This document shows positions 53,621 to 58,958 of a stretch of DNA of 64,000 bases, in pieces; position 1 is the stretch's first letter, and every line of letters starts with the position of its first letter. The notes beneath the pieces are model-generated. The model did no database searches and was not told the origin of the DNA. It saw only the letters and a program-made list of their open reading frames with translations. Source of the stretch: Candidatus Woesearchaeota archaeon (GTDB lineage Archaea; Nanobdellota; Nanobdellia; SCGC-AAA011-G17; JACPIM01); NCBI GenBank assembly GCA_964513145.1, contig CAZELK010000003.1, positions 1-64,000 of the forward strand, written 5' to 3'. The position numbers and the translations under genes are program-made.

Positions 53621-53643
53621 CATAGGTAATTGGCTTGTATTTT
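53621..53643. other. 23S pre-rRNA terminal/processing stem, 3' arm
   Basis: 22/23 inverted repeat of 57047-57069. Confidence 0.75.
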
Positions 53644-53932
53644 ATTTTTGGGCTATTAGTAACTGCAAGCTGAATACGTCGCCGAAGCTTCGTACTTACA
53701 CTTCAGTCCTATCAAACTCATGTTCTTTGAGCGCCCTATATCTCTTTTCAAGTATAGCTTCCTCCTTAGATGCTTTCAGGAGTTATCTATTAGAGCGTAG
53801 CTGCTCGGCCTGCCTTGTCAGACAACCGATACACCAGAGGCTCCGAATCATTGTTCCTCTCGTACTAAATGATCCTTACCTTCAGATATTAAGCACTTCC
53901 AGTAGATATAATCCAAACTGTCTCACAACGTT

Positions 53933-54016
53933 ATGTTAAACGGGAGGAATTGAACCTCGCTTCGGCAAATACATAGAGATGTTTTAATTTGCTTATGTAT
54001 TTGCTTACAACCGTTG
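53933..54016 (-). other. 23S BHB intron, about E. coli 2588/2589 (84 nt)
   Basis: GUUA-AG|C-AACGG...CCGUU-UAAC-AU|A; spliced GGGUUAAGAACGUUGUGAGAC. Confidence 0.88.
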
Positions 54017-54070
54017 CTTAACCCAGCTCACGAACCATTTTAATGGGTGAACACCCCCACCCTTGGCTGC

Positions 54071-54256
54071 CTACAGTTCGAAGGACAATTCGTGAAAATA
54101 GTTTTCCTTAAAGTCAAAATATTAGTGATTAATTTAATATAGTTCTAAATAGTTCTCAAATTAACATACTAATTTTTAGACTTCTAAGTAATAGATATCG
54201 GAAATAAAAGACATTTTGACTTGAAAAACTATTGTTCGTATGATTGTCCTTCGACA
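54071..54256 (-). other. 23S BHB intron, about E. coli 2534/2535 (186 nt)
   Basis: GCAG-AA|U-G UCGAAGGACAAU...AUUGUCCUUCGA A-CUGU-AG|G-CAGCC; spliced GGCUGUGCAGAAGCAGCC; long hairpin, no recognisable protein ORF. Confidence 0.85.
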
Positions 54257-54269
54257 TTCTGCACAGCCA

Positions 54270-54301
54270 CTATATTGATACAAGAATTAACTTTATATCA
54301 T
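54270..54301 (-). other. 23S BHB intron, about E. coli 2521/2522 (32 nt)
   Basis: AUAU-CC|A-UGAUA...UAUCA-AUAU-AG|U; spliced CCAUAUCCUGGCUG. Confidence 0.88.
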
Positions 54302-54373
54302 GGATATGGTGAGCCGACGTCGAAGTAGCAAACAGCGCCATCGATATGAGCTCTTAGGCGCTACGACTCAGTT

Positions 54374-54410
54374 CTAGGGATCTAAGAGAAAATTTTTGAT
54401 CTCTAAGATT
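54374..54410 (-). other. 23S BHB intron, about E. coli 2449/2450 (37 nt)
   Basis: GGGG-AU|A-AUCU...AGAU-CCCU-AG|A; spliced GGGGAUAACUGAG. Confidence 0.85.
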
Positions 54411-54914
54411 ATCCCCGAGATAGCTTTTCTGTCATACCTAGCCCCTATTAATAAGGACATAGGGGTTCGCTAGACCAGACTTTCGTCTCTGGATTTTTTA
54501 ATAGTCAAAATCCAGTCAGGCCAACTTTTGCTCTTGCACTCTTCAGAAGATTTCCAAACTTCTTGAGTTGACCTTAGGGCCCTGTTGATATCTTTTCAAC
54601 AGGGTGCCGCCCCAGCCAAACTGTCCAACTGCTGCTGTCCCAACTTTCGTTGGTAAGTAACATAAATTCTACAGAGTGGTATTTCAATTTTGTCTATCCT
54701 TAACCTAGCAGCTAAGGCATAGCGACTACCACCTATACTACACAGTAGAACATATATCACAACAACAGTCTACAGTAAAGTTCTACGGGGTCTTTTCTTC
54801 CCGCTGGAAGTCTCTGGCCTGCACACCAGAAGGGTATTTTCAGTGGATACTAACTAGGGACAGTGCGGATCTCGTTACGCCATTCATGCGCGTCGTCATT
54901 CAAACGACAAGGTA

Positions 54915-55053
54915 CAACGATATCATTAATCTCATTTCTCAGATTCAACTTTTCAGTTCAAAATGTGAAAGATATTTTTTGTTTAACAAACCCAAGGCAA
55001 TTCTCTTAGATGAATGGCTTTTTCATCAAAATCTATAGCGAGATTAATGATAA
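54915..55053 (-). other. 23S BHB intron, about E. coli 1938/1939 (139 nt)
   Basis: GCGA-AA|U-UAUCAUUAAUCUC...GAGAUUAAUGAUA-UCGU-UG|U-ACCU; spliced GUAGCGAAAUACCUUGUCG. Confidence 0.9.
54939..55029 (-). ncRNA. Candidate intron-encoded box C/D guide RNA
   Basis: UGAUGA (55023-55028), 13-nt spacer ending in GCCAUUCAU (antisense to 23S exon 54879-54887), CUAA (55006-55009), CUGA at 54953 and 54939. Confidence 0.45.
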
Positions 55054-55079
55054 TTTCGCTACCTTAAGAGAATTATAGT

Positions 55080-55111
55080 CTAGAATTGTTAAAGATTTTT
55101 CTTACAACAAA
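55080..55111 (-). other. 23S BHB intron, about E. coli 1912/1913 in the H69 loop (32 nt)
   Basis: GGAA-UA|U-UUGUU...AACAA-UUCU-AG|A; spliced GGGAAUAACUAUAAUUCUC. Confidence 0.88.
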
Positions 55112-55903
55112 TATTCCCGCCGTTTACAAGTCCTTAGCCTCCTTGAAAAGAGGTTTTAGATACTTGCACTGGGCAGACGTCACGTCTCATACACATCATT
55201 GCTGACTTGCGAGACGTTACGTTTTTGTTAAACAGTCGGACCCGCCTAGTCACTGCGCCCTGTAATTGCAGTTAGAAACTACAACCGCAGGGATTCCTTC
55301 TACCAAAGGTACGGAACTAAATTGCCGATTTCCCTTAGCTAGTTTACACCATCATACCTTAGGCTTCTCACCTAGAGTACCTGTGTTGGTTCTGGGTATA
55401 ATTATTCAAGATCCTTTTTAATTTCATTTTCACGGACTCCAGGCATCAACCAAATGGACCATAAGGTCCACTATTCTTAAAATTAATCAAGTTCTCACCA
55501 TTACGGTACTTCCTTGATTTGTTTTAATTAACATCCAAGACAATAGATGTTGGCTTAGCCCAAAATGTCTGAAACTAAACTTGTGTTACCACGCGTACTT
55601 GAATAGTAAAGGAATATTAACCTTTTTCCCATTCCCTAAGACCTATTAGGCCTTTGGTTAGGATTAACTTACTCTTAGCTGATTTGCATTGCTAAGAAAC
55701 CCTTACTCTTACGGTATCAGGGAGTCTTACCCTGTATTGCTCCTACTACTACCAGGATTCTCATTTTTATTAGGTCCACTATTTCTTTCGAAAAAGCTTC
55801 TACCCTAACAAAGCGCCTACCTACCACATAAGTTCTTTACTTAGTCTATAGTATCGGTAACTGATTTAGCCCCGTCCATCTTCAGGGCATATAACCTTGA
55901 CAG

Positions 55904-55946
<43 letters not shown>

Positions 55947-57132
55947 TACCTCCCTGCTGTCTCTGGTTATACACGCCTTTTACCCTTTAACACTTAATCA
56001 GTATTTAGGGACCTTAACTATAGTCTGGGTTGTTCCCCTCTCGCGATATAAGCTTAACCCACATCGCTTTTTCCTAAGGTCTCAGATGACAAAATATTCG
56101 GAGTTGGACGAAGAGGGGAGGAATTTCTTCCCCTTACCCCTAAATCCGTAGCTCTACAATTTTATCTATCTCACTTAAGACTAGACTGAGGCCTATTTCG
56201 GTAGGAACCAGCTATAACCAGTCTCGATTGGCTTTTCACCCCTAATCTAAGGTTATACAAACAGATTTACACTAGAACTGCTTCAGGCCTCCACAAGGTT
56301 TTACCCCTGCTTCACCTTACCCTAGAATAGATCGACTGGATTCGGGTAGCATCCAAGTGACTATAGGCACTTTCATACCTAACCCCTCCTTGAAAAGTGT
56401 GGGTTTTTGGTTTCCCTTCAAGTTCAAACTGAAAAGTTTTTACTTTCGCCACTTAAATGCACTCCCTGGCTCGTTATTCGAAACGCACGATACAACTCCG
56501 AAGAGCAGTATCATTCTGTATTCATTAGGTTTCAGGATCTTTTCACTCCATGTTAAAGGTTCTTTTCAACTTTCCTTCGCAGTACTCTTTGCTATCGGTC
56601 TCAAGTTATATTTAGAGTTGGAAGTTAATAGCTCCCACATTCACACCCCATATCCGAGGAGTGCTACTCTGGATACCTCGCAAGTCTATTAATCTGCTCT
56701 ACAGGACTATCACCTTCTATGATGTCTTTTTCCAAAGAACTTTGAGCAGAATTAATTAAGATCAAAAGCAAGGTCCAAACACTACATTTCTATTTTATTT
56801 CTAAAATAGATTCAGTTTGCTCTATGTCGTTTTTTCTCGCTGATACTCACGACATCTATTTGATTTCTTTTCCTCCAGGTACTAAGACGTTTCAATTCCC
56901 CAGGTTCCCAATCTTTTCAGATTTAATGAGAAGTCTCATTCAGAAATCTCCAGTTCACAAGTTGCATGCACTTCGCTGGAGCTTATCACAGCTTGCCATG
57001 TCCTTCTTCGGAACTTGAGCCAAGTCATCCACCTAATGAAGTAGGAAAAATACAGGCCAATTACCTATGCACGGAACTATATAAAAATAATTCCCTTGAC
57101 CCAAAAAAATTTCTTTTTCTGAGCTGCATTTT

Positions 57133-57188: not shown

Positions 57189-57231
57189 AAAAGTTGATTA
57201 TATTTTTGAATATGAAATGGACCCGTCGGGA

Positions 57232-57263
57232 TGTTCATTACTTTTAATTTCTCAAAAGTTTAT
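57232..57263 (-). other. tRNA-Ala T-loop intron, 59/60 (32 nt)
   Basis: UCGGG-UUCA-AA|A-...-UGAA-CA|U-CCCGA; intron-side helix relaxed. Confidence 0.87.
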
Positions 57264-57303
57264 TTTGAACCCGAGGCCCCTGCCTTGCAAGGGCAGTGCT
57301 CTA

Positions 57304-57344
57304 TTGCCCCAAACTTTGTAAAAAGTTTTGATCAAATTATTTGA
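57304..57344 (-). other. tRNA-Ala D-loop intron, 19/20 (41 nt), containing a family B repeat
   Basis: GCUCA-GUCU-GG|U-CAAA...UUUG-GGGC-AA|U-AGAGC; + strand 57311-57336 reads aaactttgtaaaaagttttgatcaaa. Confidence 0.87.
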
Positions 57345-57377
57345 CCAGACTGAGCTACGGGCCCATTTATTTAATTG

Positions 57378-57413: not shown

Positions 57414-58958
<1,545 letters not shown>

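Follow-up and report, generated by a model that had tools for sequence, protein, structure and literature searches.

Six probable bulge-helix-bulge introns at conserved positions of the only 23S rRNA gene in a Woesearchaeon genome

The gene analysed here is the 23S rRNA gene carried on the minus strand of a 64,000-nt stretch of archaeal DNA (positions 1 to 64,000 of contig CAZELK010000003.1, GenBank assembly GCA_964513145.1, a tiny Candidatus Woesearchaeota archaeon from groundwater; hereafter the window). Six inserts interrupt the gene, all at conserved positions of domains IV and V. We put the probability at about 85% that they are archaeal bulge-helix-bulge (BHB) introns devoid of open reading frames (ORFs), which descend from mobile rRNA introns carrying LAGLIDADG genes and are spliced by the endonuclease EndA together with the ligase RtcB. 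Elements of this kind are already known, and the gene is an example very rich in them. Cleavage, ligation and circularisation in the cell are inferred from intron structure, comparison with relatives and the known enzymology.

The 23S gene spans positions 53636-57056 and measures 3421 nt versus the 2987 positions of the Rfam large-subunit (LSU) rRNA model RF02540, which it matches over model positions 1-2987 with 2246.6 bits. Alignment to this model, a check suggested in a preliminary description of the sequence, left big unaligned blocks within domains IV and V. Insert borders were set by aligning the gene with four intron-less 23S genes from the same order (G005, G036, G022 and G021); position numbers follow E. 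coli rrlH, and an insert was counted when it spanned at least 12 nt in the exon alignment. Exactly six inserts emerged (Table 1), summing to 510 nt with outer limits 53933-55111. The alignment thus reproduced every insertion site given in the preliminary description as well as the total and the limits, and it bore out the remark that no insert lies in a variable region. Upon removal of the inserts the 23S rRNA is 2911 nt long, identical in length to the spliced 23S of a congener, G001. The source genome is metagenome-assembled (18 contigs, 0.98 Mb, 98.8% complete) and contains a single LSU match, making the window gene its sole copy.

The archaeal splicing endonuclease targets a helix of 4 bp with a 3-nt bulge on either side, and in each bulge its cut follows the second base. 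This geometry was tested in the register dictated by the exon alignment with the intron-less relatives. In that exon-fixed register, all six inserts showed four of four central-helix pairs and two 3-nt bulges, in agreement with the earlier assertion that each has a BHB of its own. An intron hairpin follows directly behind the 5' bulge in every case, with 4-14 contiguous bp in five introns and a mismatch followed by 12 bp in I5. A random register in the window 23S yields four of four pairs with P = 0.025, and four of four pairs plus an inner helix of at least 4 bp with P = 0.0005; registers neighbouring the true sites qualified in 0-2 of 440 per intron. With the cut placed behind the second base of the bulge, the junction present in the intron-less G005, G036, G022 and G021 results at six of six sites. 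As a negative control, about 30 inserts of relatives at the group I sites 1931 and 2593 were scored, none of which exceeded two of four pairs. The outer exon-exon helix is good at 1938, where it consists of the native H70 (helix 70) pairing AAGGU/ACCUU plus one extra A, and at 2534, where it is the native H91 stem GGCUG/CAGCC; each contains one irregular base. The BHB is recovered in the minimum free energy (MFE) fold of I2, I3 and I5.

Table 1. Introns of the 23S gene and other interrupted features of the same operon in the window. Sites are in E. coli numbering; the arrow marks the predicted cut; H, rRNA helix.
Feature	Position	Strand	Length (nt)	Site and remarks	Central helix	Bulges	Inner helix
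Intron I1	55080-55111	minus	32	1912/1913, H69 loop; hairpin mini-intron	GGAA/UUCU (4/4)	UA↓U, AG↓A	6 bp
Intron I2	54915-55053	minus	139	1938/1939, H70 loop	GCGA/UCGU (4/4)	AA↓U, UG↓U	14 bp
Intron I3	54374-54410	minus	37	U2449/A2450, peptidyl-transferase central loop, one base off A2451	GGGG/CCCU (4/4)	AU↓A, AG↓A	10 pairs, one mismatch
Intron I4	54270-54301	minus	32	2521/2522, H90/H91 junction	AUAU/AUAU (4/4)	CC↓A, AG↓U	8 contiguous bp
Intron I5	54071-54256	minus	186	2534/2535, H91 loop	GCAG/CUGU (4/4)	AA↓U, AG↓G	G.A mismatch, then 12 bp
Intron I6	53933-54016	minus	84	G2588/A2589, base of H93	GUUA/UAAC (4/4)	AG↓C, AU↓A	AACGG/CCGUU, 5 bp
16S BHB intron	58156-58230	minus	75	790 loop, same operon; splits GGAUUAGAU↓ACCC	UUAG/CUAA (4/4)	AU↓A, AU↓A	7 bp
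tRNA-Ala(UGC)	~57218-57364	minus		16S-23S spacer, starts 57364; G3:U70 pair			
tRNA-Ala BHB intron	57304-57344	minus	41	D-loop, same transcript	GUCU/GGGC (4/4)		5 bp

Comparison with relatives provided further evidence that the motif is maintained. Introns of 32-34 nt occupy site 2521 in five genomes, in which the exon strand of the central helix reads AUAU, GUAU, CUAU, CUAA and GCAA and the 3' strand of the intron reads AUAU, AUAC, GUAG, UUAG and UUGC, respectively. All 20 cells of this five-genome comparison are paired, with double changes at three of the four helix positions. Site 2534 is occupied in nine genomes by introns of 38-213 nt that have the same core. At both sites the inner helices vary in sequence while complementarity is kept.

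The congener G001 is the only other member of the genus with a 23S gene, and its exons are 91% identical to those of the window 23S. It contains orthologues of five of the six window introns, the one at 2521 being absent; they are 69-97% identical to their counterparts, and two of them are longer. The G001 intron at 1912 equals I1 plus 100 internal nt (132 versus 32 nt), with shared ends and 31 of 32 aligned nt identical. The G001 intron at 2449 is 606 nt long; it shares BHB core and terminal hairpin with I3, contains an ORF that matches LAGLIDADG_3 (E 2e-9) and gives no group I signal. Its introns at 1938 (120 nt, 85% identical to I2) and 2588 (84 nt, 87% identical to I6) are closer in size to those of the window, and the latter bears a compensatory change in an internal 11-bp hairpin. 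Another relative, G009, has a 597-nt insert at 1912 whose LAGLIDADG_3 match is weak (E 5.7e-4, under the Pfam cut-off). In the window, none of the six introns contains an ORF, and tblastn with the intron ORFs of relatives detected no LAGLIDADG or endonuclease remnant in them. Because G001 holds longer or ORF-carrying orthologues of introns that in the window have neither ORF nor remnant, the window introns look like ORF-less deletion derivatives of mobile introns.

One contig from a metagenome (Ga0209542_10201786, 1851 nt), whose exons are 90-98% identical, has none of the six introns and reads through all the sites in one continuous stretch. Since so near a relative is free of all six, intron content turns over quickly among close relatives. 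At the group I site 2593 the same contig harbours some 700 nt of inserted sequence, with an ORF containing a LAGLIDADG motif (...IAGFLDGDGSI...).

Both enzymes that such splicing would call upon are encoded in the genome. EndA is a single gene of 188 aa on contig C7, recognised by PF01974 (1.4e-30) plus PF02778. Its residues 42-188 align gap-free to residues 25-171 of the homotetrameric M. jannaschii enzyme (1a79, E 1.5e-34), and over this range it has no extra loop relative to that strict enzyme. The Tyr, His and Lys that we take to be catalytic in M. jannaschii EndA are identical. The closest relatives of the protein (59-73% identity) come nearly all from metagenome-assembled genomes (MAGs) of Candidatus Woesearchaeota, Nanoarchaeota or Nanoarchaeia, and the assignment of the host to the DPANN archaea in the preliminary description is therefore right; some of these relatives bear other automatic labels, and many are from groundwater. 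RtcB is present on contig C6 (PF01139, 473 bits). The RtcB gene region (C6:75368-78153) is itself interrupted. A 33-nt strict-BHB insert at C6:75441-75473 contains a stop codon, and its removal restores the conserved motif ...MPDGHWG↓YGFPIGGV...; a second frame-shifting insert, about 17 nt long, lies ahead of VGFDINC and is followed by an intein-sized insertion of about 1.4 kb.

These elements suggest the following course of events. The last six bases of exon 1 would pair with the 3' end of the intron, forming a 4-bp helix with two 3-nt bulges on opposite strands and the intron hairpin behind it. In each bulge the single homotetramer-type EndA (188 aa) would cleave the bond that follows the second base, and RtcB would then ligate the exons and probably circularise the introns. 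The outcome would be a 23S rRNA of 2911 nt in which H69, H70, the peptidyl-transferase loop, H91 and H93 have their native form. The ancestors would have been mobile rRNA introns with LAGLIDADG homing endonuclease genes; these genes would since have been lost through internal deletion, leaving little beyond the splicing motif.

Several observations weigh against BHB splicing of all six inserts. The outer helix amounts to merely 0-2 bp of local pairing at 1912, 2449, 2521 and 2588, and at these four sites the 3' bulge is therefore closed on one side only. EndA looks strict, and its aligned part has no insertion of the type to which broad endonuclease specificity has been linked (Kaneta et al. 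2018, PMC5829648). Unconstrained MFE folding gives structures without a BHB for I1, I4 and I6, and the motif is thus shown by this means for only three of six introns; folds constrained to contain it lie 0.8-5.9 kcal/mol above the MFE, the gap being only 0.9-5.9 kcal/mol for I1, I4 and I6. Because of these two results, thermodynamic prediction alone is not decisive for AU-rich 4-bp helices. Finally, the RtcB reading frame is itself broken by inserts, so that the supply of ligase hinges on further processing.

The interrupted ligase gene bears directly on the first alternative, in which the inserts are excised at the BHB sites while the exons stay unjoined; base pairing would then hold together the pieces of a broken 23S rRNA, much as happens with bacterial intervening sequences. 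In its favour, ligation is a step distinct from cleavage, RtcB may be limiting, and fragmented rRNAs occur in other lineages. We nevertheless consider this outcome improbable, since it would set free pieces of 13 nt and 26 nt carrying strands of H91 and H69/H70, RtcB is present with a strong match, and in the known cases of archaeal BHB processing, those of tRNA, rRNA introns and pre-rRNA, the last step is ligation (PMC7714728). Retention of the inserts in mature rRNA as lineage-specific expansion segments is very unlikely. The sites are the tip of the H69 loop, the neighbourhood of A2451, H91 and the base of H93 rather than variable regions; the inserts are missing base-exactly from close relatives, and the 3' ends of the introns covary with the exons in a way that keeps the splicing motif rather than an rRNA helix. 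Nothing specific speaks for retention, apart from the unusual variation in length of DPANN and CPR (Candidate Phyla Radiation) rRNAs in general.

An independently assembled congener with five orthologous introns at the same bonds is hard to reconcile with a dead gene copy or an assembly artefact that would leave a clean 23S elsewhere. Misassembly is frequent in rRNA operons, and the source is a MAG of 18 contigs; against this stand the intact exons (2246.6 bits) and the single LSU match in a 98.8%-complete genome, and we regard an artefact as scarcely credible. Self-splicing by group I or group II introns, or by degenerate remnants that are still autocatalytic, has a next to negligible chance. 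A ribozyme core would not fit into inserts of 32-186 nt; for group I it takes about 200 nt or more. Neither group I (RF00028) nor group II introns were matched in window 53900-55150 even at E up to 1, although the insert of one relative at a group I site, used as a positive control, gave a group I covariance-model match (E 7.9e-6); no Rfam family other than LSU rRNA was found in the intron region at E < 0.1. BHB cores are present in all six inserts and absent from the group I-site inserts. The considerations in favour are that relatives have, at 1931 and 2593, inserts of group I type that contain LAGLIDADG_1 genes, in line with PMC6125680, and that group I introns are known from position 2449 of eukaryotic nuclear rDNA (PMC3511172). 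BHB splicing by EndA and RtcB remains the reading that we favour.

The spacing of the introns leaves two micro-exons on the minus strand, one of 13 nt (54257-54269) between I4 and I5 and one of 26 nt (55054-55079) between I1 and I2. The 13-nt micro-exon forms the exon-2 side of the I4 motif, and to the motif of I5 it contributes outer helix, central helix and bulge. As it serves both motifs, the BHBs of I4 and I5 share bases and may need ordered cutting. From the intron positions and these micro-exons, we infer that unspliced rRNA would be non-functional, as the preliminary description had argued. The introns have a G+C content of 19-37%, versus 42% for the exons, as expected for unconstrained spacer-like sequence. 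No significant similarity was detected among the six introns or between them and other places in the genome, and at the level of sequence there is no sign of one intron family spreading inside the window 23S.

Two candidate elements within the introns were considered and set aside. I2 contains a possible C/D-box small RNA (54954-55035), with a weak snoR11 match (E 0.11, 25 bits versus a cut-off of 50 bits) and the motifs UGAUGA and CUGA; in its G001 orthologue these boxes have changed or been lost, and the resemblance was taken as chance. In I6, the GGUUCAAUUCC hairpin (GAGG-UUCAAUU-CCUC) fits the T-arm consensus, including the pair equivalent to G53-C61. ARAGORN and Rfam found no tRNA there, the base equivalent to C56 is changed in G001, and this likeness, too, is probably due to chance.

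How unusual this intron load is became apparent from a sample of about 59 full-length 23S genes belonging to the order of the window genome. Roughly half of them are without any insert and measure 2876-2950 nt, and most of the intron-bearing ones have one insert of 270-760 nt at 1931. Small BHB-type introns recur at 1085, 1912, 1938, 2310, 2449, about 2475, 2521, 2534 and 2588. The highest count, six inserts, is reached only by the window 23S and G100, with G001 at five. The window 23S is therefore at the top of its group for the number of BHB introns, while the phenomenon itself is common in Woesearchaeota; the preliminary description was correct in calling the gene intron-dense, and its picture of an unusual case needs to be tempered to that extent. 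The six inserts of G100 are at other sites, namely 1085, 1784 (566 nt), 2069, 2310, 2475 and 2533, and the BHB core is strict in three of the six. Five genomes have inserts near 2475 (H89). The literature that we searched contained no census of BHB introns in DPANN LSU genes.

The closest known counterparts are the rRNA BHB introns of Crenarchaeota (23S of Desulfurococcus, Pyrobaculum, Staphylothermus and Aeropyrum; 16S of Thermoproteales), in which motif and enzymes are as in the window. They likewise prefer conserved functional rRNA sites (Jay and Inskeep 2015, PMC4496867; PMC2738675) and occur in the same three forms, with a LAGLIDADG gene, as an ORF-less remnant or as a BHB-only hairpin of less than 50 nt. 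Decay of ORF-carrying introns by deletion has been described for Aeropyrum (PMC2738675) and for the 16S introns of Thermoproteales (PMC4496867). In contrast to the crenarchaeal systems, the host here is a mesophilic, AT-rich DPANN archaeon with one alpha4-like EndA instead of a heterotetrameric enzyme, and it combines six 23S introns, none with an ORF, with one in the 16S gene. To our knowledge, this number exceeds that of any cultivated archaeon.

In the same lineage and gene, BHB introns are found together with group I introns in LSU genes of Woesearchaeota, Pacearchaeota and other DPANN archaea according to Nawrocki, Jones and Eddy 2018 (PMC6125680). The relatives of the window show this mixture, with group I-type inserts at 1931 and 2593 and BHB introns elsewhere, whereas the window 23S is without any group I intron. 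As far as its accessible text goes, that study focuses on group I introns; BHB introns appear only in a schematic figure, and we found no list of their sites. The rRNA insertions of CPR bacteria (Tsurumaki et al. 2024, PMC11270868) also belong to ultrasmall organisms with reduced genomes, and many of them are likewise in the 3' half of the 23S; they are often tied to LAGLIDADG genes, and the neighbouring sites 1917, 1931 and 2593 recur. They differ in being group I or group II introns or RNase III-type intervening sequences, in bacteria that have neither EndA nor BHB splicing. The myxomycete nuclear group I site L2449 (PMC3511172) is the same phosphodiester bond as that of I3, with introns that differ from I3 in class and splicing chemistry. 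The shared bond fits the reuse of conserved homing targets by unrelated mobile introns (cf. PMC2602781).

The gene offers a base-by-base record of how far tRNA-type, protein-dependent introns can colonise the catalytic core of the ribosome in an archaeon with a reduced genome. The pair of congeners illustrates the probable decay of endonuclease introns to mini-introns, from 606 to 37 nt at 2449 and from 132 to 32 nt at 1912. With one M. jannaschii-like EndA alongside BHB sites of which some have an outer helix and others lack it, the genome provides a concrete substrate set for studying endonuclease specificity in DPANN archaea. For annotation, finding rRNA and tRNA genes in DPANN genomes calls for intron-aware models.

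Interruption extends to other genes of the operon. The 16S rRNA gene (57415-58958, minus strand, 1544 nt versus a 1478-position Rfam model) has one insert relative to the four intron-less relatives, at what is presumably E. coli bond 793/794. It falls inside the widely used 785F primer site, an example of primer and probe sites that are split in this organism. The 16S gene of G001 contains an 84-nt orthologue of this intron and a second, 30-nt BHB-like insert near its position 243. The tRNA-Ala in the 16S-23S spacer was detected by neither ARAGORN nor Rfam; splicing of its D-loop intron gives back the usual D-loop ...CAGUCUGG↓UAGAGC, and for a further insert of about 32 nt in the T-loop no strict BHB was found.

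Whether BHB splicing is an obligatory, genome-wide layer of gene expression in this Woesearchaeon, not an occasional nuisance, is a speculative extension that we hold to be rather doubtful. If true, at least eight excisions would be required for a single rRNA operon transcript (six for the 23S, one for the 16S and one or more for the spacer tRNA-Ala), and production of both ribosomes and ligase would depend on splicing, since the RtcB mRNA carries a BHB intron. The introns in H69 and in the peptidyl-transferase loop could then keep immature large subunits inactive until late in assembly, and a strict-looking alpha4 EndA would process sites without an outer helix.

The number of tRNA genes detectable in the 98.8%-complete genome ranges from 15 with ARAGORN, nine of them with introns, to 21 with Rfam RF00005. 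Non-canonical or multiple introns probably conceal most tRNA genes, and the low count fits the description of DPANN tRNA sets hidden by gene disruption (PMC5829648).

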